DNA of 64,000 bases. Origin: Escherichia coli (GTDB lineage Bacteria; Pseudomonadota; Gammaproteobacteria; Enterobacterales; Enterobacteriaceae). Both the position numbers and the translations under genes were made by a program. Location: NCBI RefSeq assembly GCF_024502345.1, contig NZ_JALDNN010000001.1; one strand, written 5' to 3'. Shown here piece after piece: positions 1-51,621 of the stretch (within the stretch, counting starts at the first letter, position 1; each line of letters opens with the position of its first letter). A model generated the notes under the pieces. That model saw only the letters and a program-made list of their open reading frames with translations, searched no databases and was not told the origin of the DNA.

Positions 1-1
1 T

Positions 2-340
2 AAGGCAGATATCCGGACTTCTGAGCACAGCAGCAAGAAACCCGGCGTTGTTGGTACTGCCCTGACCAAACAGTGGGCGAAATACACGGGACGGGAAGCT
101 GTCCTGCTGCTGTTCCAGAATGGCGTGAATCGCATCAAGCGCTATCCATTCACGGGAGAACAGGCCCCCTTCGCCATTGGCGGTTAAGCGCAGGGCAAGA
201 CTCCCGGTTTCACCCTCTTTACCCAGCTCATACGTCAGCAGTCCTTTACTGTGGGGGCTGATTTTCTCGGCTTCCCCCATGTAGAACACGGTATAGCTTT
301 CGGTGACGGCGGCTTCGGTAGCGATTTTTTTCTTACTCAT
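2..340 (-). CDS. hypothetical protein, N-terminal 113 codons only; gene continues beyond window start
   Basis: Hand translation from ATG at 340..338 is open to position 2; start overlaps the stop of the upstream gene (ATGAGTAA). Not in ORF track because its stop lies outside the window. Confidence 0.45.
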   Translation of the reverse strand, partial: MSKKKIATEAAVTESYTVFYMGEAEKISPHSKGLLTYELGKEGETGSLALRLTANGEGGLFSREWIALDAIHAILEQQQDSFPSRVFRPLFGQGSTNNAGFLAAVLRSPDICL

Positions 341-713
341 GGTTCAGCGCCTCAATCAGGTTCCGGAGTTGAGTGATAACGGTCGTGTCCGGGAACACCA
401 GATAGATACCCTGTCCGTTATCGCAGACGATACCGAGCAGGAGATACCAGCCATCATCAAGTGCGGTGACGTATTCCGGGTTAGCCAGTGCCACTGCCAG
501 CAGCGGGTCTTCGGGGAGGGTGTCATCGTGGTTGAGATGCCAGAGCAGGGTTCCCGTTTCGTTCCAGAAGGTGGTAAACAGGTCGATATCATCGACAGGG
601 CCAAGGATTTCATTGCTGAGGGCCGCCAGTGCGGAGGCGGGCAGGTTGAGAAGGGGAAGACTGGTGGGGGTCGTGAGTTTAAACATGATTATCTCCATAA
701 ATGATTGATTCAT
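333..713 (-). CDS. hypothetical small acidic protein (126 aa; may start at an internal Met)
   Basis: Six-frame ORF; D/E-rich; stop overlaps start of the next minus-strand gene; AT-rich upstream region 714..1200. Confidence 0.45.
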   Translation of the reverse strand: MNQSFMEIIMFKLTTPTSLPLLNLPASALAALSNEILGPVDDIDLFTTFWNETGTLLWHLNHDDTLPEDPLLAVALANPEYVTALDDGWYLLLGIVCDNGQGIYLVFPDTTVITQLRNLIEALNHE

Positions 714-967
714 ATTGATAATATGTTTTCAAATGACTTTTAGTTACATTTTATTTACGTTGTTTGCTTTTTCTGGATTATGCCCTTAAATTTAGTTCTA
801 ACCTGGCATTAAATCCCGTTTTTTTTAGATTTTTAGAGTTTTATAAAGAAATTAGCATGTGCTGTTTTAACTGAAAATGAGAGAAGGCTTGCGCACAATT
901 GCTATTGATTTTCTTACTTATTTTCTCAATCACAAAACGCCTTAAATAGTTCAAAAAACAATCAACA

Positions 968-1038
968 CCCCATAATCGATATTATTTATGGGGAGAAACG
1001 ACGTTTAAGCCTGAAAGTGGGGGAGTGGCACTTTCAGG
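968..1038. other. two adjacent perfect hairpins (8-bp stem at 968..993, 10-bp stem at 1010..1038) upstream of integrase gene
   Basis: ccccataa/ttatgggg and cctgaaagtg/cactttcagg inverted repeats read directly; no flanking T-run. Confidence 0.3.
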
Positions 1039-1204
1039 AGATTAAGGAGGCAAACAGGCCTCTTTAACGCGTGTTTTTCTCACCAAAATGTCAGAGTCGG
1101 TGATTTGCACTTCAGTATTTCTGCCAATACTATTCGCTCCATGTGCTGGCCAGCATCTAACTCAATACCCTTAATCTGTATTAATTGAGCGAGATGTATG
1201 CATT

Positions 1205-2515
1205 ATGAAACCCGATAGTTCTTTAAACCAAATAACGCAGACAATGAAACGGAATGATGTTGATTCTGTGGATAGTCGCTTTTTTGAGTCAGCGCAAAAC
1301 ATGAAAACCAGCGTTGACGTTGAAGATTGCTGCGTTGAAGTGATGGTTCGACATCACAGCCCAAAGAATCAAAGAGAGGCATTCACTAAAGCTTTTTTTG
1401 ATGAGTGTAAAATCCGTGCAGTACAAACTGGCCGGACTATCGAAGCCAGCGATACAAAATGTACCGGGCTTAAGGCTATATTCCACTCATCCGGACGCAT
1501 TAAGTTTATTGTCCGCAAAAGTATTCGCGGAAAGAATGTTTACGTTGCAGTAGGAAGTTACCCTGAATTTTCCATTAATAACGCAAGGGAACATGCCTTT
1601 AAAATAATTCAGGAGCTTAAGGCTTCCGTTGAGACTTATGGTGAGCGTTTTCTTACTCACAGTAAAATGACGTTTAATGAGCTTGTGGATGAGTATGAGA
1701 AAAGCGTACTCAGCACGGGCGTTAAGCGTTCAGCTAACACCGATCTTTCTAAGATCCGTAAATACCTGCGCCCTCTTCTCGGTGCCAAAAAGCTGGCAGG
1801 TATGACGGAGGCAGATATTCTGAGCTATCTGCATAATCTCGATCTCAAGCCTGCCACCCGCAACCGCCATCTGGCGCTCATTAAAGCGGTGTTTACCAGG
1901 GCAATACGCATGGGATACATCAGCCGCTCTCCGGCGCTTTATATCAAAGCGCTGCCTGAAGTGACGTCAGATCGCCGTGCCATGGATGACTCCCAGCTTC
2001 AGCGCTGGATGGACGTCTGTGAGCGCTGGCGTAATGGTAAACCCGATCATGAAGCCCTTGCTCTTCTCATGTTCCTTGCCCTGACGGGGCTGCGTCTGGG
2101 GGAAACCCGTCACCTTCGTCTTGAAGATGTGGACTGGAGCCGCAAGGTTATCACCCTTCGCCATACCAAAAACGGCAAACTACGCCGTGTACCGGTATGT
2201 GATAAGGCTTTCGTTCTTCTGACAGAACAGCGTCAGCATCTGGGTGATGAAGGCTGGGTATTTCCGGGCAAGGGAACCGACAATCCGGTTGCTGAGCCGC
2301 GTCGCCTGCAAAAACGACTTTGTGAGGCTGCGGGTATTCCACCGTTCACCATCCATGAGATGCGTCATACCTTTGCGACAAAGCTCATTGAGAGCGGGGC
2401 CGACATTCACACCGTCAAAGACTTATTGGGTCACAGCACTATCAAAGTAACGGAGCTTTACTTGCACGCTTCCCCGGCGCGTTACCACGAAGTCGTTAAC
2501 CGGGCGATGGGGTAA
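1205..2515 (+). CDS. tyrosine recombinase / P4-type integrase (436 aa)
   Basis: C-terminal catalytic motif HxxR...Y (HTFATKLIESGADIHTVKDLLGHSTIKVTELYLH); N-terminal arm-binding-like segment. Confidence 0.85.
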   Translation: MKPDSSLNQITQTMKRNDVDSVDSRFFESAQNMKTSVDVEDCCVEVMVRHHSPKNQREAFTKAFFDECKIRAVQTGRTIEASDTKCTGLKAIFHSSGRIKFIVRKSIRGKNVYVAVGSYPEFSINNAREHAFKIIQELKASVETYGERFLTHSKMTFNELVDEYEKSVLSTGVKRSANTDLSKIRKYLRPLLGAKKLAGMTEADILSYLHNLDLKPATRNRHLALIKAVFTRAIRMGYISRSPALYIKALPEVTSDRRAMDDSQLQRWMDVCERWRNGKPDHEALALLMFLALTGLRLGETRHLRLEDVDWSRKVITLRHTKNGKLRRVPVCDKAFVLLTEQRQHLGDEGWVFPGKGTDNPVAEPRRLQKRLCEAAGIPPFTIHEMRHTFATKLIESGADIHTVKDLLGHSTIKVTELYLHASPARYHEVVNRAMG

Positions 2516-2584
2516 CAACCTTCACTCAACGGTATGGTTTTTAACTATGGTTCTGATGCACCCGTTTTCTGACGGTGGCGTAAT

Positions 2585-4513
2585 TTGATGGTAATACACA
2601 TGAATAAAAAAGTGACAACTAATGTTCCTAAGGTTTCCGGGATTAAGCGTATTCGCGCTTTTGCTGACCGCGATAAAAATTTCAACAAAATGTCGGAAGC
2701 AATTATCAGGCGTGCTGAAAACACTGAGGTCGGTGAAGATGATATCGCTTCACTCGGTATTGGTGATGGGCTGCCACGGCATTATGTGAATACGGCTAAT
2801 GGCCTTTTCTACATCGGTGGACAGAAACCTGTGCAGGTTTGCACCACGCCAGTTGTGCCTGTCGCCCTGTTTTGTGGAAAAGATAAGGAGTCCGGTCTTG
2901 GGATCAGCCTGATGACCGGTAACGGGCTGGGTAAGTATGTTAAGGCCCTGGTACGCTTTGAGGATATTGTTCAGAGCGGTGCTCAGGTAGTAGGCAAACT
3001 GGCAGATCGTGGATTTTGTGTTGGCTCCTCTCCACAGCAGTTTGCCCTTTTTGACCGTTTTCTTCAGCGCTGCCGGAGTTTACCGCTGCCTGTCTATCTG
3101 ATGGCAGATGCGATGGGATTCGTTTCGGAGGATATGGCCTTTTTACATGGTCATGAGCCCGTTGTGACCTCTCTGACCGGGTTTGATTATCTACTGCCGG
3201 GATTCCGCGTGCGTCCCGGACTGCACAAAGGTGGGGCCCTGGAGGAGTGGATTAACCTCATCCGGGAAAATGTCCATGGCTGGGCGCAGACCTTTGCACT
3301 GAGTGCGTCCTTTGCTTCGATGCTTCTGGTTCCTGCCGGTATGGATGTGGGCATGTTTCATTTTCACGGCGTATCCACCACCGGTAAAACGCTTCTCCTG
3401 ATGCTGGCTGCATCGGTCCATGGTGATGGCAGCGAGCCGGGTAGTGGGGGGAATGTAAATATTATTCGCTGGAATACCACGCCTAACGCGATGGAGCGCC
3501 TTCTCGCTGACTATTCCGGTCTGGTCGCCTGCGTCGATGAACTGGGTGCGAGTAATCATAAGCAACTTTCCTCACTGCTTTACAACATTACGTCAGGTAC
3601 GGCAAAAGAGCGCCTGAACCGTGGCCTGACGGCAGATGAGCCGTTTAAATGGCGCATGTTTATTCTCTCCACCGGTGAGATGTCAATCTCCGAAAAGCTG
3701 GCTGAACAGAAAGCCGTGTTACAGGGAGGGCAGGAGCACAGGGCCATCAGTATGGAACTGTTGCCTGAGGATGCTCAAAAACCGGATGAACCGGTATCAG
3801 AAACACGTGCCCGTGCAGATGCACTGAAGACGGGGCTGGCAGAGGCTTATGGTCATGCCGGGCCTGCATTTATCGGCAAACTGTTATCCGGGAAAAATAC
3901 GGCTGGCGGTCTTCGCACCTACGCAGAGTTTTCATCCTGGCTCCAGGAACAGACAGATGATTGCTGTAACGCACTGGAAGAGGCCCTGAGGGATGAGGGG
4001 CGTGATATTACCCGCGTTCAGCGGCGCGGACTGAAAAGATTTGCGCTGGTATGGCTGGCAGGAGAGAAGGCGCTGAAATATGGCCTTTTACCTTTCGAAA
4101 GCGATGCGGTGGCTGAATCCGTTATGTCCGCTGCACGACGCTGGCTGGATGATAACCAGAATCAGTATAACCCGGTGCGTAACATGCTGGAGGAGCTTCA
4201 GCTGACGCTGGTGACAAAAAGCAGCAGGCACTTTATCACCCTGCGTGACGAACATGCCCGATGCCCGGGAGATATGTGGGGATTCGTCCATTACAAAACC
4301 GGCGACTTCCTGATTTATGAATCGGTGTTTGAAAAGCTCTGTTCTGAAAAGGGACTTAAGACCGTTGATGTGGCCAGACCGTTAGAGCGTTCCGGTTATC
4401 TGCTTGGCGAAAGTGCCGGACACTATAAAAAAAGAGCGCTGAAGACGATGGCGCAGTCTTACTACCAGGTCAAAAAAGCGTTTCTGAAATGCAATGTGAT
4501 GACCGAATTTTAA
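2585..4513 (+). CDS. DUF927-like / P4 alpha-like SF3 helicase-domain protein (642 aa)
   Basis: Walker A GVSTTGKT and Walker B-like VACVDELG; immediately downstream of integrase; domain assignment from memory. Confidence 0.6.
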   Translation: MMVIHMNKKVTTNVPKVSGIKRIRAFADRDKNFNKMSEAIIRRAENTEVGEDDIASLGIGDGLPRHYVNTANGLFYIGGQKPVQVCTTPVVPVALFCGKDKESGLGISLMTGNGLGKYVKALVRFEDIVQSGAQVVGKLADRGFCVGSSPQQFALFDRFLQRCRSLPLPVYLMADAMGFVSEDMAFLHGHEPVVTSLTGFDYLLPGFRVRPGLHKGGALEEWINLIRENVHGWAQTFALSASFASMLLVPAGMDVGMFHFHGVSTTGKTLLLMLAASVHGDGSEPGSGGNVNIIRWNTTPNAMERLLADYSGLVACVDELGASNHKQLSSLLYNITSGTAKERLNRGLTADEPFKWRMFILSTGEMSISEKLAEQKAVLQGGQEHRAISMELLPEDAQKPDEPVSETRARADALKTGLAEAYGHAGPAFIGKLLSGKNTAGGLRTYAEFSSWLQEQTDDCCNALEEALRDEGRDITRVQRRGLKRFALVWLAGEKALKYGLLPFESDAVAESVMSAARRWLDDNQNQYNPVRNMLEELQLTLVTKSSRHFITLRDEHARCPGDMWGFVHYKTGDFLIYESVFEKLCSEKGLKTVDVARPLERSGYLLGESAGHYKKRALKTMAQSYYQVKKAFLKCNVMTEF

Positions 4514-4562
4514 CCCTGAATAAAACCATTTTGACTGAATAACAACGAATAGAAGGTGATGT

Positions 4563-4919
4563 ATGATTTTTGAATCAGACCAGTACTATGACGGTTTTCC
4601 TCACGCTATCAGCAGCGAAAATGAAGAAAAAACCTCATTCAATGATTACGCTCTGGTTAACACACTGGCGGAGTGCCTGTATCACGACATTTCTCGTGAA
4701 ATCTTCGATGGCAGTGAGCCGGCGCTCCGGGCCGTCATTGCCAACGGTCAGATTAAATTCCTGGCTCGTTATACGCTTAGAGGGGCCTGCTATTATGAAC
4801 CCCTCGGCACATTTCCACGTATGCCCGTTAACGTCGCGCGTGAACGAGCACGTGAACTCTATAACAGATTTGATGATCACCGGGTGCCGGATGAAGAATA
4901 TGGGGCCATCCCGTTCTGA
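4563..4919 (+). CDS. hypothetical protein (118 aa)
   Basis: ORF 50 bp downstream of the helicase-like gene on the same strand. Confidence 0.45.
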   Translation: MIFESDQYYDGFPHAISSENEEKTSFNDYALVNTLAECLYHDISREIFDGSEPALRAVIANGQIKFLARYTLRGACYYEPLGTFPRMPVNVARERARELYNRFDDHRVPDEEYGAIPF

Positions 4920-4925
4920 CTGATG

Positions 4926-4958
4926 GCTGAACAGTAAAAAAAAGCAGGGGCACTTGCC
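4926..4958. terminator. putative bidirectional terminator between convergent genes
   Basis: Imperfect hairpin gcagggg...cctctgc flanked by A-run and T-run. Confidence 0.35.
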
Positions 4959-4973
4959 TCTGCTTTTCTGTTA

Positions 4974-6158
4974 TCACAAGGACGGTAGCTGAGCCGTTAT
5001 CCTTTCCGCCAGTAACTGACTGGTGTTCTGTAAGCGCTGAGGATGAAGATGCGCATACCGTTGTGAAGACTGACTGCTGCGGTGCCCCAGTTGAGCCTGA
5101 ACGTCATACAGTGTTCCGCCGTAGGACACGATGAGGGCGGCAACCGAATGGCGGCAGGTATGAATACACACTTCTTTGTCGAAAATTCCCGCCCGACGAA
5201 CGATACGCTGAAAGGCTTTAACGGGGTTATTCAGCGGCATTCCTTGTTTTTTACCGATAAACAACCACGGATTTCCACGCTGTGTTGGCAGTGTTCTGAT
5301 TACGTCCATCGCCAGTGAATTAAGATGAACAATCCGTCCATAGCCATTCTTGGTTTCCGGGAGCCATAGGGTGCGTTTAACCGGGTCAACATGCTCCCAC
5401 TTAGCCAGACGCAGTTCATCACGACGAAGGCCGGTCAGTAACAGCAGTTTGACATAGCGGGCAGCTACGGGGCTGGTATCGTTATCGGCGGAGAGAAAAA
5501 TACGACGAATTTCGTCCTCGGTAAAATAACGCTGTCGGGCGTTGTTCTCCCTGAGTAGCTGTACCACCCTTGCCGGATGAACAGAGGTCATGCTTTGCCT
5601 TCCGGCCCATGTAAAGACGGCTTTAATGAGTACGATGACACGGTTACAGGTAGCCGCTGACAGGGAAGTACTTAACGTCTGCTGAAGGCGCAGAATGCTC
5701 GCTGGTGTGATATCGCTCAGCAGCCTCTGACCAATGGCGGGACGGATATGATCGCGGTAGCGCTGAACATCCTTTCCCCAACTGCGTTTAGCGGATTTTG
5801 CCCATGGCAGATAATGCTGATTAAAGAGTTCATCGAACGTCAGCTCCATTCTCTTGTTTTCACGCTCCTGCTTAGGGTCAGTGCCGGTGGCAAGGGAACG
5901 TTTGTGTTCTATGGCAATCTGACGAGCAAGATTGACGTCCACTTCAGGCCAGTGACCAATGGCGATGGCGCGTTTTCGTCCATGATAAAGGTAGCGTAGC
6001 AAAAACTTTTTACGACCTTCTCTTCTGCTGACCAGACACTTGAGGCCGGAAATCTCAGTGTCGCTGTATTCGGCATCGGTACTGCGTGCATCGGATGTGT
6101 TAGGGGGCAGGGATTTAATGAGCTGATTAGTAAAACGGAAGCGTTTGGGGGTGGACAT
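4974..6158 (-). CDS. P4-type tyrosine integrase (394 aa)
   Basis: Catalytic motif HTCRHSVAALIVSYGG...LGHRSSQSSQRYAH; arm-binding-like N-terminus; tRNA-proximal. Confidence 0.85.
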   Translation of the reverse strand: MSTPKRFRFTNQLIKSLPPNTSDARSTDAEYSDTEISGLKCLVSRREGRKKFLLRYLYHGRKRAIAIGHWPEVDVNLARQIAIEHKRSLATGTDPKQERENKRMELTFDELFNQHYLPWAKSAKRSWGKDVQRYRDHIRPAIGQRLLSDITPASILRLQQTLSTSLSAATCNRVIVLIKAVFTWAGRQSMTSVHPARVVQLLRENNARQRYFTEDEIRRIFLSADNDTSPVAARYVKLLLLTGLRRDELRLAKWEHVDPVKRTLWLPETKNGYGRIVHLNSLAMDVIRTLPTQRGNPWLFIGKKQGMPLNNPVKAFQRIVRRAGIFDKEVCIHTCRHSVAALIVSYGGTLYDVQAQLGHRSSQSSQRYAHLHPQRLQNTSQLLAERITAQLPSL

Positions 6159-6503
6159 ATAACCTCCTGTGACTGGTGTAAAGAACGTCAGGGTTGCCCC
6201 ATCCCCGGCACGGCGCTGTTAATGGCTGAGTTGATTTTCTGGTGTGGCTAAGGGAATGCTGGTGCCACATGGGATGAATGAAGACGAGAAATACAGCAAA
6301 AACAGGCGTTACGGTCTGCTTCTGGTCTTAAGGGGAAGATTGCCGTTGGGGAAGAGTTCACAGAAATAATATGTGTTTCAGTCGGGTATAATTACATGTG
6401 ATAAGGGCAAAGAGCGTGCTTTGCTAAAATTTGACATGTTGAAGTCCACTCTTTTTAACGATGTCGTTATGGACGACATGGCGAGTCTTGCTTAGATAAT
6501 TAA

Positions 6504-7091
6504 TCAAAATACTGTGACTTTGGACCCACGTTTACCACATTTCGAGCACTTGAGCCGAGTTTTAAGGTCTTCTAGAGTTACTCCCATTGCAACATACTGC
6601 TTAAGGTCGTTCAAAGTAAGGATTGTGGGGAGACGACAAAAAAATCCAGAGGCGCAACATACCAGCATCTCCGAGCCGTTTTTTAACCAGTCCTCAAGAT
6701 TATCGTGCGATCTCGTTAGTCGTTCGATATCCGCTCTCCACTGCTGGATTTCATTACCGTTCCAGTCGATATTTAGCTCGATTTGTTTGGCAACGAACCG
6801 GTGTTTACCTCTGTTAACTGTGGGTTCATAGTCCTTACGTTGATCTTTGATGAGATCAGCCTCATAGAGGAAATCATCGTTTTTGTTGTCGGTATAATCA
6901 AAAATTACCTTAATTAAATCAATATCAACGTTTTGTTTTTTGATGAATAAACCCTGTGTTCCGCTTCCGTTCAAGTCCCGGCTAAAGTTAATGTTGAGAT
7001 GGCGGCGGAGTGAGAAGAAATAGCTGTGGCCGTGCATAGCCAATGCAAGTCTGGCTATGTCATTGCAGTTGTAGGGTGTGTGTGTATCCAT
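6504..7091 (-). CDS. hypothetical protein (195 aa), AT-rich, C-terminal CxxC
   Basis: ORF between integrase and tRNA-Phe; low GC; ends CSKCGKRGSK. Confidence 0.45.
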   Translation of the reverse strand: MDTHTPYNCNDIARLALAMHGHSYFFSLRRHLNINFSRDLNGSGTQGLFIKKQNVDIDLIKVIFDYTDNKNDDFLYEADLIKDQRKDYEPTVNRGKHRFVAKQIELNIDWNGNEIQQWRADIERLTRSHDNLEDWLKNGSEMLVCCASGFFCRLPTILTLNDLKQYVAMGVTLEDLKTRLKCSKCGKRGSKVTVF

Positions 7092-7607
7092 GATGTTACC
7101 TTTAATTCATATTCGGTCGAGAGCGTCAGGAAACTATCCTAATATACCTTTTTTCTACACCAGTATTTGGATCAATTTTCATCCCTTTGGCCTGCTTCTT
7201 GTTGATTAACTCTCAGCGATGTTTGAAATAGGCCATCAGTGGTCAGAATCATTTTTTACTTCCACTTTTTGCTCAGATTTGACCCTAAGGTCTAAGTTCC
7301 AATACGTTTCGCTCAATTACTATCACCCCTGATAAATTATTCTATGATGACGTGGAGGGCGGGGGATTCAGGCAATGTTAAGAAATGAAAGGTTTAAATG
7401 CGAATATTACAGGTGGAGGAGGTGGTGGATACCCCCGACTGACAAGGGGAGTTGATGGCGCTGAGTTCACCCCCTTGCCTGAAGAGGAGTCTCCCCGGTC
7501 TTCCCCCGGGGGGGATGGCAGGTAATTTGTTGTTAAATAAAGTAAATTATGAAATCCCCCATTTCCCCCGTATTCTCTGCTTCATTATGAATAATCTTAG
7601 AGAAAGG

Positions 7608-7764
7608 AACCGTAAAGGACCGTAGAAAGACCGTAGCTGTGAGGTGAGGGAAGGCACATCAGAGGATGTTGAGGTGTCTAAAAGTAACGAACATCTGCAA
7701 AAATGGTGAAAAATCCAGCAAGAAAATAACGTGTTGCAACGACCAGAAATCTACCGTAGCTAAG
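7608..7764. repeat. four direct copies of accgta(g/a) near the tRNA-Phe 3' end; candidate integrase arm sites
   Basis: Copies at 7608, 7619, 7630 and 7753 read directly. Confidence 0.3.
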
Positions 7765-7805
7765 AAAGGAAAAAGCCCCGCTTTTCAGCGAGGCCTTATG
7801 AATAT

Positions 7806-7881
7806 TGGTGCCCGGACTCGGAATCGAACCAAGGACACGGGGATTTTCAATCCCCTGCTCTACCGACTGAGCTATCCGGGC
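7806..7881 (-). tRNA. pheV: tRNA-Phe (anticodon GAA)
   Basis: Reverse complement reads GCCCGGATAGCTCAGTCGGTAGAGCAGGGGATTGAAAATCCCCGTGTCCTTGGTTCGATTCCGAGTCCGGGCACCA, the canonical E. coli tRNA-Phe. Confidence 0.95.
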
Positions 7882-7986: not shown

Positions 7987-8694
7987 TCAGGCAAACCAGG
8001 CGGTCCAGGCGGCGGAAAGCGGCATTGCCAGAAGGAGTGCTGGAAGCATGTTGACCACCGGGAACATTTTAATGCCACAGATGCGTAATCCGGTTGCCAG
8101 CAGCAATAAACCGCCTACGGCGCTGAAGTCTGCCATCATCGACGGTGTGGTCAGCGGTAATATCAGCGCGGCAGCCCACGCCAGCGTTAACTGGATGATC
8201 AGTAATGGGATACTAATTACCGACACCGCAATACCCAGCGAGCAGGCGAAGATCATCGCCGTAAAGAAATCAAGAAATGACTTGGCGATTAAAATACTCG
8301 GATCGCCGGTCATCCCTTCGTTCATCGCCCCGAAGATCCCGGTGCCGCTGGCGCAAAACAGGACAATAATCGCGACATAATTCTGAATAAAAGATTCATG
8401 CGCTGGCTTCTTACGTGAGTGACGAAACAGATTTTGTGCTTTGGCGACTGCTGTATTGACACCTTTCTCCAGCAAACAAATTTCGCCAATTAGAGCGCCA
8501 AGTAGCGTAGCTAAAACCATCGCTGGAAGGTTGGCGCATTTCACAACCAGTAAAATACCAATCCCCAGCGATGCCAGACCAAAAATAGATGTCATGGAGA
8601 CGCGGATACGTTCCGGTAAGCGTTGGCTGAGCAGTGCGCCGAGAACGCCACCCAGTAAGACTGCACTAGCGTTGATAAAAGGGCCGATGACCAC
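7987..8694 (-). CDS. yqgA: DUF554 family inner membrane protein (235 aa)
   Basis: Hydrophobic 235-aa ORF between pheV and speC, as in K-12. Confidence 0.8.
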   Translation of the reverse strand: MVIGPFINASAVLLGGVLGALLSQRLPERIRVSMTSIFGLASLGIGILLVVKCANLPAMVLATLLGALIGEICLLEKGVNTAVAKAQNLFRHSRKKPAHESFIQNYVAIIVLFCASGTGIFGAMNEGMTGDPSILIAKSFLDFFTAMIFACSLGIAVSVISIPLLIIQLTLAWAAALILPLTTPSMMADFSAVGGLLLLATGLRICGIKMFPVVNMLPALLLAMPLSAAWTAWFA

Positions 8695-9091
8695 AAGAGT
8701 TCCTGTTAGCTGTATTGTTTGATTTTCTTATTATGAACTTTTTGCCTTGTTGATGGCTTGTCTGGTCGCAAAGTCCTGGCTTGCACGCTTTAGCGAAAGG
8801 TGCCATGATTGCGCGAATTTTCTCCTCTCTGTACGGAGTTTGCCCGATGCACGCCATCTCCTTACATTCTCTCGCTTATCGCCGTTTCGCGCGAAACGTT
8901 TCCCTTTCTATGTTACTGCTCATGCGGTGAAGTTAACGCACGCTCACTGCAGGACAACAGTAAAATCAGAGCGTTTCTGCTTTTACTGATGTCTGGCGGT
9001 CGGAGCTGGTGACCAGTTTGACCCATATCTCATGGGGCAGGGTTTTCCACCTTGTCCGGTATTCTTACTTCCCCGAAACGGGTTTGCGCTT

Positions 9092-11227
9092 ATGAAATCA
9101 ATGAATATTGCCGCCAGTAGTGAACTGGTATCCCGACTTTCTTCTCATCGTCGCGTGGTGGCGTTGGGAGATACTGATTTTACGGACGTCGCGGCAGTCG
9201 TCATTACCGCTGCGGATAGTCGCAGTGGCATTCTTGCGTTGCTTAAGCGCACCGGTTTTCATCTACCGGTGTTTTTGTATTCCGAACATGCTGTTGAATT
9301 ACCTGCGGGCGTTACGGCGGTAATCAACGGCAACGAGCAGCAGTGGCTGGAGCTGGAATCCGCAGCCTGTCAGTATGAAGAGAATTTGCTGCCACCGTTT
9401 TATGACACGCTGACGCAGTACGTTGAGATGGGCAACAGCACCTTTGCTTGCCCTGGACATCAACATGGTGCGTTTTTTAAAAAGCATCCTGCCGGACGCC
9501 ATTTTTACGATTTCTTTGGTGAGAACGTCTTTCGCGCCGATATGTGTAACGCTGACGTAAAATTGGGCGATCTGCTTATTCATGAAGGATCGGCGAAAGA
9601 TGCGCAGAAATTCGCAGCCAAAGTCTTTCATGCCGATAAAACCTATTTTGTCCTGAACGGCACATCGGCAGCGAATAAAGTGGTGACGAATGCGCTGTTA
9701 ACGCGTGGCGATCTGGTGCTCTTCGACCGTAACAACCATAAGTCGAATCATCACGGCGCGCTGATTCAGGCGGGGGCGACGCCGGTCTATCTGGAAGCTT
9801 CACGCAACCCGTTTGGTTTCATTGGCGGTATTGATGCGCACTGTTTTAATGAAGAGTATCTGCGCCAGCAAATTCGCGACGTTGCGCCAGAAAAAGCCGA
9901 GCTGCCGCGCCCGTTTCGCCTGGCGATTATTCAGCTGGGAACCTATGACGGAACTGTCTATAACGCCCGTCAGGTGATCGATACCGTTGGGCATCTGTGT
10001 GATTACATTCTGTTTGATTCCGCGTGGGTCGGTTACGAACAGTTTATCCCGATGATGGCGGATAGCTCGCCGCTGCTATTAGAACTTAACGAAAACGATC
10101 CGGGGATCTTTGTGACTCAGTCGGTGCACAAACAGCAGGCGGGATTCTCACAGACGTCGCAGATCCATAAAAAAGATAACCATATCCGCGGACAGGCGCG
10201 TTTTTGCCCGCATAAGCGGTTGAATAACGCCTTTATGCTCCATGCTTCTACCAGCCCTTTCTATCCGCTGTTTGCTGCACTGGATGTTAACGCCAAAATT
10301 CATGAAGGGGAGAGTGGGCGTCGGCTGTGGGCTGAGTGCGTTGAGTTGGGTATTGAGTCGCGCAAGGCTATTCTTGCGCGCTGTAAGCTGTTCCGCCCGT
10401 TTATCCCGCCCGTTGTTGATGGCAAATTGTGGCAGGATTATCCGACATCTGTGTTAGCCAGCGACCGCCGTTTTTTCAGTTTTGAGCCGGGGGCGAAGTG
10501 GCACGGCTTTGAAGGATATGCCGCGGATCAGTATTTTGTTGATCCGTGCAAGCTGTTACTCACTACACCAGGTATCAATGCCGAAACCGGCGAATATAGC
10601 GACTTTGGCGTTCCGGCGACGATTCTGGCGCACTATCTGCGTGAGAACGGCATTGTGCCGGAGAAGTGCGATCTCAACTCCATTCTGTTCTTATTAACTC
10701 CGGCGGAAAGCCACGAGAAGCTGGCACAACTGGTAGCGATGTTGGCGCAGTTTGAACAGCATATTGAGGATGACTCGCCGCTGGCTGAGGTGTTGCCGAG
10801 CGTTTATAACAAATATCCGGTGCGCTATCGCGACTACACCCTGCGCCAGTTGTGTCAGGAGATGCACGATCTGTATGTCAGTTTCGACGTCAAAGACCTA
10901 CAAAAAGCGATGTTCCGCCAGCAGAGTTTCCCGTCAGTGGTGATGAACCCCCAGGATGCGCATAGCGCTTATATTCGCGGTGAAGTGGAGTTGGTGCGGA
11001 TTCGTGATGCCGAAGGGCGAATTGCGGCAGAAGGGGCGTTGCCTTATCCACCTGGCGTGCTTTGCGTGGTACCCGGGGAAGTCTGGGGTGGGGCGGTTCA
11101 ACGTTATTTCCTTGCACTGGAAGAAGGGGTGAATTTGTTGCCGGGATTTTCGCCGGAGCTGCAAGGTGTTTATAGCGAAACCGATGCGGATGGCATGAAA
11201 CGGTTGTACGGTTATGTGTTGAAGTAA
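9092..11227 (+). CDS. speC: ornithine decarboxylase, constitutive (711 aa)
   Basis: Start MKSMNIAASSELVSRL at internal Met of ORF 9032..11227; length matches. Confidence 0.9.
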   Translation: MKSMNIAASSELVSRLSSHRRVVALGDTDFTDVAAVVITAADSRSGILALLKRTGFHLPVFLYSEHAVELPAGVTAVINGNEQQWLELESAACQYEENLLPPFYDTLTQYVEMGNSTFACPGHQHGAFFKKHPAGRHFYDFFGENVFRADMCNADVKLGDLLIHEGSAKDAQKFAAKVFHADKTYFVLNGTSAANKVVTNALLTRGDLVLFDRNNHKSNHHGALIQAGATPVYLEASRNPFGFIGGIDAHCFNEEYLRQQIRDVAPEKAELPRPFRLAIIQLGTYDGTVYNARQVIDTVGHLCDYILFDSAWVGYEQFIPMMADSSPLLLELNENDPGIFVTQSVHKQQAGFSQTSQIHKKDNHIRGQARFCPHKRLNNAFMLHASTSPFYPLFAALDVNAKIHEGESGRRLWAECVELGIESRKAILARCKLFRPFIPPVVDGKLWQDYPTSVLASDRRFFSFEPGAKWHGFEGYAADQYFVDPCKLLLTTPGINAETGEYSDFGVPATILAHYLRENGIVPEKCDLNSILFLLTPAESHEKLAQLVAMLAQFEQHIEDDSPLAEVLPSVYNKYPVRYRDYTLRQLCQEMHDLYVSFDVKDLQKAMFRQQSFPSVVMNPQDAHSAYIRGEVELVRIRDAEGRIAAEGALPYPPGVLCVVPGEVWGGAVQRYFLALEEGVNLLPGFSPELQGVYSETDADGMKRLYGYVLK

Positions 11228-19689: not shown

Positions 19690-19705
19690 CTCATGTTAGG
19701 TACCT

Positions 19706-19746
19706 TTGCCGGATAATATAAAAAGTTATCCGGCAAATTATTTTTT
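19706..19746. terminator. bidirectional terminator between yggM and the TRAP permease gene
   Basis: ttgccggataa / ttatccggcaa stem, then T-run. Confidence 0.6.
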
Positions 19747-37374: not shown

Positions 37375-37519
37375 TTAAGATTATTCTGCTGGCGGGTCGA
37401 TTTATTTACGTAAATCGGTCCGCTTTCTTTTTATATATTCTTAAAAATAATTTAGCTGCTTTTCTTATTAAATAATCTCCCTACAATCGCTGCATTAATT
37501 AAATGCAGAGGGAACGGTT

Positions 37520-38251
37520 ATGAAAAAATGGAAAGTACGTAGCGCGTTGGTGGCATTAATCGTGCTGCTGGCCGGTTGTTCCAGTAATGCGCAGTATAAT
37601 AGCAGTGCATCGGGCAATGTCGGCACCGCCTGGGGTGGGGATGTGCACTCAACGGTTCAGGGCGTATCTGCTGAGCGAGCCTGGCGCGATCCGGCGGAGA
37701 TGATCGTTATTAGTTATTCGACTAATGTTCCTTCCGGCTACGACCGCGTTTATAGCATTCGTATTAACGAACTGGAATATGCTATTCGCGATGGTAATTT
37801 TAATTCTCTACCTATTACGCGTGTTTATGATTCATCCAATAATGAACCACGCTATATTGTCCATGCCAGAGTCGGAATGAATTATCAATTATATGTCCGT
37901 AATTACAGTCGTAACACCAACTACGAGATCGTTGCTACGGTTGATGGCCTGGATGTGCTGAACGGCAAGCAAGGTTCGCTGAATAACAACGGCTATATTG
38001 TGAATGCCGGAGATTCTTTAGCGATTAAAGGATTCCGCAAAGATAAACATACCGAAGCGGCTTTTCAGTTCGCCAACGTTGTTGATTCCTACGCAGCCAA
38101 TTCGGCGCAAGGCGATGTGCGTAATACCGGGGTAATCGGCTTTGCCGCCTTTGAATTACAAGGCCAGGCGCAAAACGCGCTGCCACCGTGCTCTGGACAA
38201 GCCTTTCCGGCAGATAACAATGGCTATGCGCCGCCACCGTGTCGGAAATAG
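37520..38251 (+). CDS. hypothetical lipoprotein (243 aa)
   Basis: Signal peptide with lipobox LLAGC; AT-rich; lies between speA and speB, which are adjacent in K-12. Confidence 0.6.
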   Translation: MKKWKVRSALVALIVLLAGCSSNAQYNSSASGNVGTAWGGDVHSTVQGVSAERAWRDPAEMIVISYSTNVPSGYDRVYSIRINELEYAIRDGNFNSLPITRVYDSSNNEPRYIVHARVGMNYQLYVRNYSRNTNYEIVATVDGLDVLNGKQGSLNNNGYIVNAGDSLAIKGFRKDKHTEAAFQFANVVDSYAANSAQGDVRNTGVIGFAAFELQGQAQNALPPCSGQAFPADNNGYAPPPCRK

Positions 38252-38386
38252 CAACCTCGCTTGATGCCTCGCCCATTTAAGGCGATAATTAGCACAAACT
38301 TGTGTTTCGCAAATCCAACCCTTCCTCGTCGGGCCTAACGACGCGGAAGGGTTTTTTTATATCGACTTTGTAATAGGAGTCCATCC

Positions 38387-47492: not shown

Positions 47493-48202
47493 AAATTGAA
47501 TTAACGGTGAATGGGCTGAACGTGCAAGCGCAGTACCATGATGAAGAGATAGAACGCGTGCATAAACCGTTGCTGCGTATGCTGGCGGCCTTACAGACGG
47601 TAAATCCGCAGCGCCGAACCGTGGTTTTTCTTTGCGCTCCGCCGGGGACGGGTAAATCTACCCTAACCACCTTCTGGGAATATCTCGCGCAACAAGACCC
47701 GGAGCTGCCCGCTATTCAGACGCTCCCGATGGATGGTTTTCACCATTACAATAGCTGGCTGGACGCGCATCAATTGCGCCCCTTCAAAGGCGCACCAGAG
47801 ACATTTGACGTTGCGAAACTGGCGGAAAATCTGCGCCAGGTGGTGGAAGGGGATTGTACGTGGCCGCAGTACGATCGACAAAAGCATGATCCTGTTGAAG
47901 ATGCGTTGCACGTTACCGCACCACTCGTCATCGTCGAAGGAAACTGGTTGTTGCTGGACGACGAGAAGTGGTGCCAGCTTGCGCAATTTTGTGATTTCTC
48001 GATCTTTATCAACGCGCCAGCTACTGCGTTGCGGGAGCGTCTGGTGGGGCGCAAGCTGGCGGGAGGGGTATCGCTGGCAGATGCAGAAGCCTTTTATGAC
48101 CGTACCGACGGGCCGAATGTTCGCCGGGTGCTGGAAGAGAGTCTGCCTGCAAATTTGACCTTAATGATGACCGCTACGGGTGAATATCGTCTGGTGGATT
48201 AA
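47489..48202 (+). CDS. yggC: P-loop kinase family protein (237 aa)
   Basis: Walker A APPGTGKST; synteny. Confidence 0.75.
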   Translation: MKIELTVNGLNVQAQYHDEEIERVHKPLLRMLAALQTVNPQRRTVVFLCAPPGTGKSTLTTFWEYLAQQDPELPAIQTLPMDGFHHYNSWLDAHQLRPFKGAPETFDVAKLAENLRQVVEGDCTWPQYDRQKHDPVEDALHVTAPLVIVEGNWLLLDDEKWCQLAQFCDFSIFINAPATALRERLVGRKLAGGVSLADAEAFYDRTDGPNVRRVLEESLPANLTLMMTATGEYRLVD

Positions 48203-48884
48203 CGTTCCTGATTACACCATCTTCCAGTCGCACCACACGAGAGAAATGACGCCGGGTAAATGCGGCGTCATGACTGATTGCTACCACGCTCGTGCCTCGC
48301 TGGCGGCACTTCTCCAGCCAGCTTTCAAACACGCTCAACCAATTTTCGTCAAAATCCCGACTCGGCTCGTCCAGCAGCAATAGTGGCGGAGAGAGTGCTT
48401 CCAGGCAGGCGACGGCGACCATCCGTCGCTGCGCACTATGCAGATCCAACGGGTGCGCGCTGGCAGTGTCTGCTAACTGACAACATTGCAGGGCAGCATG
48501 GGTACGTTGAGTGATTTCATCCGCCGGGCATTTTTGCAGTTTCAAACCAAATGCGATCTCGTCAGCGACGGTGCTGTGAAAAAGTTGGTTTTCCGCTTCC
48601 TGAAACAGTACGCCAATCTTTGCCGCGCGCTGGCGGTTTTTCAGGTTTTTCATCGCCTGTTGTTGCAGCATAACCGTACCGGCTGTGGGCGTAAGAAGAC
48701 CTGCCATTACTCGTAACAGCGTCGATTTCCCTGCGCCATTGTCACCGGTCAGCGCCAACCATTCACCTTGTTTGAGTTGCAGAGAAATGTCGCAAAGACA
48801 ATCCGTTGCCGCGCCAGGCCAGCGATAAGATATCTGATTTAACGTTAACATAGTGGCTGGAGTGCTCCGTTTTGCAATTGCCAC
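48174..48884 (-). CDS. ABC/ECF-type ATP-binding protein, second ATPase (236 aa; start possibly at 48851)
   Basis: Walker A GDNGAGKST, Q-loop, Walker B LLLLDEPS; tightly coupled to the upstream ATPase gene. Confidence 0.75.
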   Translation of the reverse strand: MAIAKRSTPATMLTLNQISYRWPGAATDCLCDISLQLKQGEWLALTGDNGAGKSTLLRVMAGLLTPTAGTVMLQQQAMKNLKNRQRAAKIGVLFQEAENQLFHSTVADEIAFGLKLQKCPADEITQRTHAALQCCQLADTASAHPLDLHSAQRRMVAVACLEALSPPLLLLDEPSRDFDENWLSVFESWLEKCRQRGTSVVAISHDAAFTRRHFSRVVRLEDGVIRNVNPPDDIHP

Positions 48885-49528
48885 GCTTGCTGGCAGTAGT
48901 TCAGGAAAGGTGTGCGATGACGTTCAAAAAGAATAATCAGCGAACCACGTTCAAACGCCCAGTGTTGTAAGCGCTGCAACAGCATTTCGCTGGCCTGCGG
49001 CGTCAGGCGGCTAAAGGCTTCATCAAGAATTAATAGCTTTGGCTGCATCGCGATGGCGCAGGCGATGACCACGCGCTGTGTCTCTCCACCGGAGAGTGTT
49101 GCCGGGTGACGATGGCGCAACGGCTGGCACTCGGTCAGAGTCAGGGCGGCATCAATCCGCGCCATAATCTCTGCTTCAGCAAGACACAGATTTTCTGGCC
49201 CAAAGGCAACTTCTTCTTCCACGCTAAAGGTACAGCCGGAGAGCTGCAAATAGGGCGATTGCTGGACGAGCTGGATGGTGGCGGATTGTTCATTAAGCGG
49301 GAGATGCCCAATGGGCGTACCGAGGAGCGTCCCCGTGCCTGTTATCTCTCCTGGCAGAAAGTCCGGATACCAGCCCGCCATCAGCTGTGCCAGCGTACTT
49401 TTGCCACTGCCGTTGTCACCAAAGATGGCGACCATCCCCGGTTTGACATAGTGAAAGTCATAACAGAACGGAGGATGCGTTGAGTGTGTCGGGCAATAAC
49501 GGAACTGTTCTAACGTAACCATATCCAC
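48845..49528 (-). CDS. ABC/ECF-type ATP-binding protein, first ATPase (227 aa)
   Basis: Walker A GDNGSGKST, signature LSGGETQR, Walker B LLILDEAF. Confidence 0.75.
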   Translation of the reverse strand: MDMVTLEQFRYCPTHSTHPPFCYDFHYVKPGMVAIFGDNGSGKSTLAQLMAGWYPDFLPGEITGTGTLLGTPIGHLPLNEQSATIQLVQQSPYLQLSGCTFSVEEEVAFGPENLCLAEAEIMARIDAALTLTECQPLRHRHPATLSGGETQRVVIACAIAMQPKLLILDEAFSRLTPQASEMLLQRLQHWAFERGSLIILFERHRTPFLNYCQQAWQLQNGALQPLC

Positions 49529-50217
49529 GCTCCGAATTCTGTCAGCATCAGCAAGATCATGGTGTAACGCGCTACGCGTTGTAGGGTGCTATCGGCTGGT
49601 GCCCACAACGTTGTTCGTCGGTTGTGGATCCGAAATGCCCGCATATCCAGCGCCGCACCACGGACAGCAAGATCGTTTAGCGCATTGTGTGTTAGCGGAA
49701 TAATTAACGCGGGCATCGCACGTAAACGCTGATACCAGCCCTCATCCAGCGGCACGCCGCGGGCACGCTGCGCTTCATGAATAATCGCTAATTGCCGTTT
49801 TAACTGCTCAACGACCAATAACGGCCCGGCAAACAGATAAGCGACGCCTGGCGGCAGGCGAGAAGCAAACAGAGCGCGGATAAAACATTGCACGGGGACG
49901 TACTGCATCCACAACTGTGAGGTTGAAACAATCGCCAGAATCCGCAACCAGAGCGTAATAGCATGCGTCCAACGCTCCGGCGAACGCGGCGTGCCGCTTA
50001 GCCATTCTGTTAGCCAGCCACCGTGTACCAGCCACAGCCCGGCTCCCAGCGAGAACATCAGCCAGACGACATATTTTGCCCGCCGCCGCGTGGCCTTTAG
50101 CGCAATAAGGCAAAAAAAGGTCGCCGCGCTATAGATCGGCAAAATGGTCTGCGCGGGCAGGATAAGCGTGGTGCAGGCCGCCAATGCCCATAGTGTTAAT
50201 GAGGTAAATGGATGCAT
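49510..50217 (-). CDS. ECF transporter transmembrane (T) component-like protein (235 aa)
   Basis: Hydrophobic; EcfT/CbiQ-like Arg-rich loop AIIHEAQRARG; position in operon. Confidence 0.6.
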   Translation of the reverse strand: MHPFTSLTLWALAACTTLILPAQTILPIYSAATFFCLIALKATRRRAKYVVWLMFSLGAGLWLVHGGWLTEWLSGTPRSPERWTHAITLWLRILAIVSTSQLWMQYVPVQCFIRALFASRLPPGVAYLFAGPLLVVEQLKRQLAIIHEAQRARGVPLDEGWYQRLRAMPALIIPLTHNALNDLAVRGAALDMRAFRIHNRRTTLWAPADSTLQRVARYTMILLMLTEFGAWIWLR

Positions 50218-50796
50218 TTAGCGCACGGCAGCCATTGCCGGAAAATGGCGCGTGGTGCGAATCGGCAGCTGGCGCAGTAAAAGCCAGACAATCACCGCTG
50301 TAAGAGTTTTATCGACCAGGTTCGCGCCTATCACCGTAATCGCCACCGACTCCACCAGGTTTTGCCCCATCGAGTGCATCCAGGCAACGAACAAATCGGC
50401 TCCGCTACCGGTGACACCGCCGAACAGCGCAGTACGCAGCGGTACAGCGACGACCGTTACCGCAAGCGTAATAATCACGCCGCTGACAACGACTTTTGGC
50501 AGGGTGCGAAACCAACCCGCTCGCGCCAGCCAACCGGCGACCAGGCCGATGACCATCGCGACGGGTGCAAATGCGGCGGCGATCGGGTCGGTCAGCAATC
50601 CCCAGAGTAAATTGGTCAGTAAGCCGGTCAGCATTCCGATCACCGGACCAAGCAGTACCGCGCTAATAAGTGTGCCGATGGAGTCGAGAAATATAGGTAA
50701 TTTGACCATGCTGGCCAGTTGCCCGCCGATCATATTGATGGCGATAGATATAACGATCAACACCAGTGCCTGACTGGAAAAGTGGCTACGCGCCAT
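50218..50796 (-). CDS. putative ECF substrate-specific (S) component membrane protein (about 192 aa)
   Basis: Hydrophobic small membrane protein; start taken at MARSHFSS with a good RBS. Confidence 0.55.
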   Translation of the reverse strand: MARSHFSSQALVLIVISIAINMIGGQLASMVKLPIFLDSIGTLISAVLLGPVIGMLTGLLTNLLWGLLTDPIAAAFAPVAMVIGLVAGWLARAGWFRTLPKVVVSGVIITLAVTVVAVPLRTALFGGVTGSGADLFVAWMHSMGQNLVESVAITVIGANLVDKTLTAVIVWLLLRQLPIRTTRHFPAMAAVR

Positions 50797-50818
50797 AAGA
50801 AAACCTCTTTGAAAGTAG

Positions 50819-51250
50819 TTATTTAACGGGGGAAATATGCAACTCGTCGTAACCAGAAAGCGCGCAAGGTTGGCGGCTAAACGCCAGTTCCTCAAGGCTA
50901 CCGATCACCAGTTCAAGCGTGGTCCGCACGGTACAGCCGGGCATCATATGACCGCCAAGCATCGTGCCGTGTGGATCGGAAACGCAGAGATGAAGATGCT
51001 CACCACTCTGTTCCAGCGTGCCGTTTAGTGAGATCACTTCGAATGTACCGTTCAGGAGCGTGGTGCCTTCTTGCCCGGCATAGCGCAAGGCGACGTCAGT
51101 CAGGCTACCGGTACAGCCTGCAATCCAGGCGGCATGAAGTTGATGCTGCTGTGCAAAAGCGTGTAGCTGGGAAAAAACTTCCTGCCCGGGGAGGAGGCGC
51201 AGTGCGTAAAAGCGTGCGGAGGAAGAATATAGGTAGGGCAATGTCATCAT
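50819..51250 (-). CDS. DUF296 / PPC-domain-like protein (143 aa)
   Basis: First gene of the cluster; family assignment from memory only. Confidence 0.45.
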   Translation of the reverse strand: MMTLPYLYSSSARFYALRLLPGQEVFSQLHAFAQQHQLHAAWIAGCTGSLTDVALRYAGQEGTTLLNGTFEVISLNGTLEQSGEHLHLCVSDPHGTMLGGHMMPGCTVRTTLELVIGSLEELAFSRQPCALSGYDELHISPVK

Positions 51251-51621
51251 TGGAGTACTCCGAAACTCGGACGTATTGCGGATAATATCGACGCTGCATC
51301 AGTCATATTCTGATATAAGTCAGGGTTTGTGACGGCACAACGAAAAGATTTTGCTACGCTTATTCGTGATTCTGCAAAGTGGAATAAATTCCACAGGGGC
51401 GGGGCTGAAAACGTGACGTAAGTCAGATAATTGCTTTCTTTGACTGGACAATCATTCCTTTTATTCCACGTTTCGCTTATCCTAGCTGAAGCGTTTCAGT
51501 CGATTAAATGTTCGACAATTAACCAATCAGTCGCAGTTTGCGACAGGTAAGGTTTCCCCGGACGATTTGCTGGATTACTCTGTCTGGCAAATTTGCTCAG
51601 GGAAAACCTTGCAGGAGATCT

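Follow-up and report, generated by a model that had tools for sequence, protein, structure and literature searches.

A probable polymerase-less relative of pipolins, with two convergent integrases and a Cch-like helicase, at tRNA-Phe in Escherichia coli

The first 7,805 positions of a 64,000-nucleotide stretch of Escherichia coli DNA (contig NZ_JALDNN010000001.1; the whole stretch is referred to as the window) belong to an island, absent from E. coli K-12, that has integrated at the 3′ terminus of the tRNA-Phe gene pheV. The island carries two tyrosine recombinase genes that face each other, int1 and int2, and between them a gene for a Cch-like DUF927 helicase and a small open reading frame (ORF) for a protein of 118 amino acids (aa). 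We propose that these 7.8 kb are the conserved mobility core of one recurrent family of integrative islands, that int2 would integrate the element, the helicase replicate it and int1 act as a secondary recombinase, and that the family is a polymerase-less sister variant of the gammaproteobacterial pipolins, not itself a pipolin as piPolB is missing. We assign this model as a whole a probability of about 0.65. tRNA-Phe genes are among the busiest integration hotspots of E. coli, and one recurrent occupant would on this reading be a coherent mobile element shared across genera, not the debris of several elements. As far as the searched literature shows, such a two-integrase, helicase-carrying defence-island platform at tRNA-Phe is undescribed, although it is common in databases.

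pheV is intact; ARAGORN reports it as the sole tRNA gene of the window, and an Rfam scan matched this gene (68 bits) and nothing else. It is flanked by yqgA (7987-8694) and then by speC (9032-11227), neighbours that identify the locus as pheV. In an alignment of the window with K-12 MG1655, collinearity extends as far as the CCA end of pheV and breaks off exactly at 7805/7806, and nothing in the K-12 region matches positions 1-7794; the K-12 pheV is the empty site for the island. A preliminary description of this DNA had placed about 7.8 kb of sequence foreign to K-12 directly behind an intact tRNA-Phe gene, which the RNA searches and the position of the breakpoint bear out. There is one copy of the tRNA 3′ end in the window (no second copy at up to three mismatches), and the far boundary of the island therefore lies outside it, again as supposed. 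In the best E. coli match, NZ_AP027822 (L001; 98.1% over 8 kb), a complete island of 21.8 kb is found between yghD and pheV. An exact 49-mer of the window is present at each of its ends as a perfect repeat pair, with no third copy and no internal att site; a repeat of 15-25 bp had been expected. At its att-distal end (L001 6293-6631) lies a gene for a "5-fold beta-flower protein" with five near-perfect 45-bp tandem repeats.

In about 20 loci, which represent seven or more genera, tRNA-Phe is accompanied by the block int1>DUF927>(small ORF)<int2, always with the same gene order and orientation. The island family targets both tRNA-Phe genes of Enterobacterales, pheV and pheU. E. coli carriers have the block at pheV and at pheU, the latter next to dicD-dsbD-cutA, and it is also found in Enterobacter, Kluyvera, Buttiauxella, Edwardsiella, Rosenbergiella, several metagenomic contigs and a contig labelled as an Acinetobacter metagenome-assembled genome. 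Island proteins of Enterobacter, Kluyvera and Buttiauxella are about 95% identical; from Mixta only a near-identical helicase fragment was obtained. Among 5426 complete E. coli genomes, about 60 contain at least 80% of the 8 kb and 120-143 contain parts of it, the element being present in about 2-3% of such genomes. Identity within the int1 clade falls continuously from 99% to 54% in a database search and then drops to 33%, and all eight contexts fetched for int1 homologues (54-99%) have the same architecture. The att arm without the block is found solely in deletion derivatives generated by the insertion sequences (IS) IS903B or IS1. Searches for repeats bracketing the int1 module, or for the inverted repeats of an invertible segment, gave only short chance-level matches, and no relative has the int1 module in the opposite orientation. 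The family is also mosaic, with int1 (57-100% identity), the helicase (45-100%) and small ORF (34-100%), and int2 (83-100%) freely combined, which points to recombination among family members and not to fusion of unrelated elements. Since there is one 49-bp repeat pair, no internal att site and a block that is invariant across genera, we favour a single island with an inverted module. The preliminary description had offered this arrangement beside that of two fused or nested elements, and it is the only one of these options that fits the evidence.

Both integrase genes lie where they had been described, each with a full-length PF00589 domain and with an arm domain that is weak in int1 and strong in int2. 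The R-K-H-R-H-Y catalytic set is complete in both, in alignment columns that are invariant, and the helicase-like gene, small gene and hairpin said to separate them were likewise found. The two proteins share 31% identity (4e-42). int2 is the most conserved gene of the family, with a dN/dS of 0.065 (values are pairwise medians throughout). The corresponding values are higher for the helicase (0.21), int1 (0.33) and the small ORF (0.50), the last of which is intact in nine loci. int1 has no stop codon in 10 alleles of 75-100% identity, conservation across alleles beginning at Met47 (position 1343), and is truncated by IS26 or IS1 in L003 and L014. By these measures int1, int2, the helicase gene and the small ORF are intact and under purifying selection in the loci compared.

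The int2 product is the probable att integrase, because its gene is att-proximal and most conserved and because the arm repeats stay constant across int1 and helicase alleles. The motif ACCGTAG(A/G) occurs three times with 11-bp phasing at 7603-7636 (Tandem Repeats Finder (TRF) and motif scan), and a fourth copy lies at 7753, 53 bp from the core (motif scan). The motifs keep constant distances to the core (about -53 and -176 to -198) in 15 loci, in which the repeat pattern is unchanged while the int1 allele varies between 57 and 100% and the helicase allele between 45 and 100% identity; the pattern tracks int2. An inverted motif of this type upstream of int2, TTACGGT, may point to autoregulation of int2. 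The island also supplies a terminator for pheV (7772-7797), replacing the original one. Between int2 and the att arm lies a slot whose cargo ranges from 0 to 4.5 kb, the distance from int2 to the core being 717 to 5286 bp; in relatives it is empty or holds genes for an AAA_15 and a dynamin-like protein or for a dCMP-deaminase-domain protein. The 195-aa protein encoded there in the window matches PHROG 30162, a family of unknown function, and has no significant Pfam match (best E 2.1) and no match in NCBIfam or PADLOC; PADLOC matched neither the 117-aa orphan, the small ORF nor the helicase. Related att sequence is also found on plasmids. Eight conjugative Klebsiella plasmids share with the att arm at window 7298-7854 a segment of about 510-560 bp (86-93% identity), together with a tRNA-Phe core of 49-51 bp and no further tRNA sequence. 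In the Klebsiella pneumoniae plasmid examined, pS141.1 (L012; IncFIB/IncHI1B, MOBH relaxase), this segment spans 8897-9452 and abuts genes for a ParA-like ATPase and transfer genes (PFL_4703, TIGR03749, TIGR03752) of the type found in integrative and conjugative elements (ICEs). It looks like an attP-type site, which suggests that the att system may be shared with an ICE or plasmid.

Gammaproteobacterial pipolins are bimodular defence islands that encode piPolB, a primer-independent family-B DNA polymerase. Besides piPolB, their core comprises an att-near IntSXT, an IntP2 as secondary integrase together with an excisionase, DUF2787, WYL and two orphan genes, and "piPolB-less, pipolin-like islands" have been mentioned in passing without being described (Mateo-Caceres et al., NAR 2024, PMC11551731). 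In the pipolin of Vibrio proteolyticus (L028), genes for an integrase, a 127-aa protein, a 142-aa protein and DUF2787 are contiguous and piPolB lies further on, and the order of int2, the 117-aa orphan, the 143-aa orphan and DUF2787 matches this core. Identity to the Vibrio proteins is 33% over 398 aa for int2 (3e-61), 27% for the 117-aa orphan and its syntenic 127-aa counterpart (4e-6), 30% for the full-length 143-aa orphan of L001 and the 142-aa protein next to the integrase (1e-23), and 38% for DUF2787 of the relatives (4e-30). In the window only the two orphans are covered, the 117-aa one being 100% identical in protein sequence to the L001 copy and intact in eight of nine related loci (dN/dS 0.30), and DUF2787 and WYL are seen in relatives. 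There the int2 strand continues beyond the window start, after the 117-aa and 143-aa orphans, with genes for DUF2787, an LRAT-family protein, small helix-turn-helix (HTH) proteins, JukA and a WYL regulator, and then with variable cargo such as HEC-05, type I restriction-modification (RM), Bub/ubiquitin-like genes and others.

As in pipolins, integration is into a tRNA gene with direct-repeat flanks and an att-proximal arm-domain integrase, and two orphans and DUF2787 stand in the same order with WYL nearby, the WYL match in relatives being to a PADLOC model and not to the pipolin protein. A second tyrosine recombinase gene likewise lies beside the replication gene, and a conserved tRNA-near core is coupled to an exchangeable half with defence cargo. 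In contrast to pipolins, piPolB (PF03175) was not found in window positions 1-7805, nor is any polymerase annotated in the complete 21.8-kb relative, and a DUF927 Cch-like helicase takes the position of the replication gene. As its second recombinase the island has int1, a paralogue of int2 with an arm domain, instead of an IntP2-type enzyme with an excisionase, and the target is tRNA-Phe instead of tRNA-Leu. Furthermore, the operon of int1, the DUF927 gene and the small ORF is inverted and inserted between int2 and its orphans, a position analogous to that reported for piPolB and IntP2-Exc. Two E. coli-like DUF2787 contexts considered as pipolins turned out to be other elements. A different element on a metagenomic contig (L031) encodes DUF2787, RadC, a 307-aa integrase, AlpA and a 544-aa DUF927 protein; the association of DUF2787, DUF927 and an integrase therefore extends beyond the int1-DUF927-int2 island family. 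A sister lineage with the same integrase, orphan and DUF2787 core and a different replication gene would link pipolins to this family and support the view of such islands as modular platforms with swappable replication modules.

Table 1. Features of the tRNA-Phe island and its att site in the window
Feature	Position	Strand	Basis or remark
143-aa core orphan, first 113 codons, truncated at the window edge	1..340	minus	Open for 113 codons; corresponds to L001 19909-20340
117/126-aa core orphan	333..713	minus	ORF; PHROG 32947
Putative AT-rich divergent control region between orphans and int1 operon	714..1204		GC 36-40%
int1, second tyrosine recombinase	1205..2515	plus	Longest ORF 436 aa; PF00589 8e-32, Arm-DNA-bind_3 1e-4, Phage_int_M
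DUF927/Cch-like AAA+ helicase with C-terminal Cch-type HTH	2585..4513	plus	Pfam DUF927 1e-33, HTH_56 5e-4
Small stand-alone 118-aa protein, predicted arm-type fold and acidic tail ending in IPF	4563..4919	plus	Pfam Arm-DNA-bind_3 2.3e-3
Predicted bidirectional intrinsic terminator	about 4937..4972		Stem 10-11 bp, -23.6 kcal/mol, z = -4.9
int2, probable att-proximal tRNA-Phe integrase, pipolin IntSXT-like	4974..6158	minus	PF00589 4.5e-23, Arm-DNA-bind_3 5e-13
Inverted arm-type motif TTACGGT, int2 upstream region	6309..6315		Motif scan
195-aa cargo gene, function unassigned	6504..7091	minus	Variable slot between int2 and att arm
Conserved att arm adjoining the core	7553..7805		TRF and motif scan
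att core, 49 bp	7806..7854	minus	Exact match to the 3′ two-thirds of tRNA-Phe, from the anticodon stem-loop through CCA
tRNA-Phe(GAA) gene pheV, intact	7806-7881	minus	ARAGORN; Rfam

In the mechanism that we favour, int2 would be a heterobivalent integrase that recombines the 49-bp core overlapping the 3′ part of tRNA-Phe, with the helically phased ACCGTAG repeats as its arm-type sites, and integration would regenerate tRNA-Phe and bring in the new terminator. After excision, the Cch/SaPI-Rep-like DUF927 helicase would drive replication of the circle by means of host primase and polymerase. The 118-aa arm-fold protein, with its SSB-like IPF tip, could serve as an accessory DNA-binding factor of the helicase operon and may connect the island to the host SSB-interaction network or act as a directionality factor. 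int1, a second recombinase that is conserved in the family, would be expressed together with the helicase, transcription ending at the terminator shared with int2; the hairpin there is preceded by an A-run and followed by a T-run and reads as a bidirectional terminator common to the int1 operon and int2. The role of int1 is most likely secondary, in the resolution of replicated multimers or at an alternative site, similar to the "secondary" IntP2 of pipolins. Exchangeable cargo, in relatives mostly anti-phage systems, would occupy the distal half and the slot that separates int2 from the att arm. No conjugation or capsid genes were seen, and intercellular transfer would therefore depend on helper or passive routes.

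Several observations weigh against this model. The window covers only the tRNA-proximal half of the island, the content of the distal half being known from relatives and not from this genome, and the pipolin comparison draws on a single Vibrio pipolin. int1 is not IntP2-like, with 25% identity to the Int protein of phage P2 (over 220 aa, 4e-15) as against 31% to int2. No replication origin was identified, no arm-type motif was found at the far (attR-side) arm of L001, and the small ORF is absent from the variants L003, L024 and L026, which makes it an accessory and not a core gene. The mobilizable island MGIVchHai6 can be excised and mobilised without a DUF927 gene that it carries (PMC7449626), so the helicase-driven step may be non-essential here too.

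The predicted helicase has a Walker A motif, GVSTTGKT, at residue 262, and its start in RefSeq relatives is the ATG at 2600. It matches PDB entries 5dgk (SCCmec Cch, an 'active helicase'; 1e-14) and 8tch (a pathogenicity island protein; 7e-12), as well as PHROG 8841, DNA primase/helicase (1e-41). With the Cch1 model NF047345 it scores 79 bits against a cut-off of 700 and thus does not reach equivalog level. Cch of the staphylococcal cassette SCCmec and Rep of the staphylococcal pathogenicity islands (SaPIs) are MCM-like self-loading helicases. Similar to these systems, the island encodes a DUF927 AAA+ helicase with a Cch-type C-terminal HTH whose gene adjoins that of the island recombinase(s) and shares an operon with a gene for a small DNA-binding accessory protein. 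However, the helicase sequences are only distantly related, a primase or polymerase partner is missing here, and the recombinases are of the tyrosine type in a Gram-negative host, in contrast to the serine recombinases CcrAB of SCCmec. The island core would amount to a Gram-negative tyrosine-recombinase counterpart of the SCCmec recombinase and Cch-helicase core.

The 118-aa protein shares 37% identity with the arm domain of int1 (1e-8). Its database homologues are 71-145 aa long, none of integrase length, and the ORF is therefore not an integrase fragment. An AlphaFold2 model of low confidence (pLDDT 57) has a beta-sheet and helix at residues 46-105 followed by a disordered tail. The top Foldseek matches in the PDB, 3rmp, 3jtz and 3ju0, are arm-type domains of P4-like, HPI and HAI7 integrases; with E values of 0.08-0.27 they are not significant, and they are consistent with the sequence evidence but insufficient alone. 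The tail (window 4860-4919) is acidic, aromatic and variable in length; its last residues are IPF in 15 of the 17 members of the family, including variants that are only 35% identical. The C-terminus of E. coli SSB reads ...DFDDDIPF, and many replication and repair proteins dock on this SSB tip (PMC5872125). We hypothesize that the tail of the 118-aa protein mimics the SSB tip. A further and doubtful step would be to regard the int1-DUF927-small ORF operon as an undescribed replication/recombination module in which the 118-aa protein is an adaptor that binds island DNA and docks host SSB-interacting proteins through IPF. In such an arrangement, which we likewise put forward tentatively and consider unlikely as it stands, the arm fold may bind the arm repeats or an origin, and partners of IPF may include primase, the chi subunit of pol III, PriA, RecQ and others. 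If true, the adaptor would let a helicase-only island assemble a host replisome, or would alternatively control the direction of recombination, and the arm-fold protein with its SSB-like tip offers a testable handle on replisome recruitment by such islands. Current concepts are not overturned by the island family, which offers a useful classification and two testable leads.

Among the other explanations, the one that survives best is that of a mobilizable genomic island (MGI) or integrative mobilizable element, in which the integrase would excise the island and a hijacked MOBH conjugative plasmid or ICE would transfer it. The MGIVchHai6 and MGIVflInd1 families have DUF927 genes as a hallmark (PMC7449626). 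These are small islands with a tyrosine integrase and, as here, a conserved DUF927 gene in an operon with a small gene for a DNA-binding protein or one resembling a recombination directionality factor (RDF), and they share with the present island defence or resistance cargo and links to MOBH elements (PMC7449626, PMC4958241). The closest plasmid homologues of int2 (56% identity), the 143-aa orphan (42% for the L001 copy) and DUF2787 are found on an Aeromonas MOBH conjugative plasmid, the Klebsiella MOBH IncFIB/IncHI1B plasmids carry the att arm and 49-51-bp core beside ICE-type transfer genes, and near-identical islands occur in several genera. Nevertheless, neither the window nor the annotated relatives yielded a relaxase or mobI-like gene, and homology to plasmids at the DNA level is confined to the att arm; an origin of the segment from a plasmid was rejected on the latter ground. 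The published islands differ from this one in having a single integrase and HTH_17-type RDFs, whereas here there are two integrases and the small gene 3′ of the helicase gene encodes an arm-type and not a Xis/HTH_17 fold; their promoters are controlled by AcaCD or SetCD, and they integrate at trmE, yicC or dusA and not at tRNA-Phe. We consider transfer of this kind possible but unlikely, and note that it is compatible with the pipolin-like model for the integration and replication steps.

Another possibility is an obligate two-recombinase machine, in which int1 and int2 act jointly at the tRNA-Phe att site, each on one strand pair or arm. Recombinase pairs have precedents in CcrA/CcrB, encoded beside cch in SCC elements, in TnpA/TnpB of Tn554 and in XerC/XerD. 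int1 and int2 always co-occur, both are catalytically complete, the pair lies beside a Cch-like helicase gene in positional analogy to SCC, and the arm domain of the 118-aa protein resembles that of int1. However, int1 diverges down to 54-57% identity and its dN/dS is five times that of int2, while the att core and arm repeats are invariant and int2 remains at least 83% identical. In the published view of pipolins, moreover, the att-proximal IntSXT alone is considered primary (PMC11551731). The IS26 and IS1 truncations of int1 are uninformative on its past function. Joint action of this kind appears distinctly improbable to us.

The composite favoured by the preliminary description, that is, two independent integrative elements with their own integrases fused or nested at pheV, is very improbable and already largely refuted. 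It would account for two integrases that are only 31% identical and face each other and for mosaic modules such as int1 alleles of 75-96% combined with helicase alleles of 46-100%, and tandem arrays do occur at pheV. In E. coli PKF8 (L019; 2502-12306) an IS1-deleted remnant of the island, with the att arm and type I RM genes and without the core, stands in tandem with an island that has a P4-like integrase, and the beta-flower gene again marks the island end. A simple tandem insertion at one att site gives co-oriented integrases, however, and therefore does not explain a convergent pair. Against fusion also stand the single repeat pair without internal att in L001, the lack of above-chance repeats around the int1 module and the invariance of the block across genera. 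int2 at tRNA-Phe without int1-DUF927 is seen only in IS-generated deletions among the loci examined, and the int1 clade never outside the block among the contexts sampled.

A phage satellite (P4-like or a phage-inducible chromosomal island) or prophage remnant is extremely unlikely: a tRNA-adjacent arm-domain integrase, a helicase in a primase/helicase PHROG and several backbone proteins in PHROG families would fit it, but megablast against 50,697 phage records gave no DNA match, the best phage integrases are about 31% identical or less to int1 and int2, psu, sid, delta, capsid, terminase and packaging genes are not annotated in the complete relatives, and int1 and int2 are both far from P4-family IntA. 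The label "P4-type" given earlier to the two integrases holds for their domain architecture and not for their sequence clade. With the P4-family and CP4-57-type enzymes (IntA, IntB, IntS) they share a DUF4102 arm, a SAM-like and a catalytic domain, and the islands alike have the 3′ end of a tRNA (or tmRNA) gene as their insertion site. They differ in sequence, with 23% and 21% identity to K-12 IntA, and in the NCBIfam P4-like model PRK09692, which int2 matches with 28 bits against a cut-off of 434 and int1 does not match. For comparison, the genuine P4-like integrase of the PKF8 tandem is 36% identical to IntA (1e-75).

The spacer between the orphans and int1 is highly variable in length and sequence across 14 family members, with few conserved blocks. 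One of these is a perfect 12-bp palindrome, TGCTGGCCAGCA, at 1144-1155, about 50 bp upstream of the int1 ATG, which may be an operator. A conserved RNA or origin in the spacer was considered and rejected, the region being too variable across the family. On the plus strand, 990-1078 contains a hairpin, CCTGAAAGTG...CACTTTCAGG, followed by a terminator-like stem and T-run, neither of which is conserved in the family. Outside the island, three further segments of the window differ from K-12. Between yggM and hemW, 3.2 kb absent from K-12 (19690-22893) encode a DctPQM-type TRAP transporter. A 935-bp insertion between speA and speB (37375-38309) contains a plus-strand ORF of 243 aa (37520-38251) with no NCBIfam match. 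Finally, 3.3 kb absent from K-12 between epd and yggC (48134-51412) encode a transporter of the ECF type that includes two ATPases and an S component of the CD3073 family.

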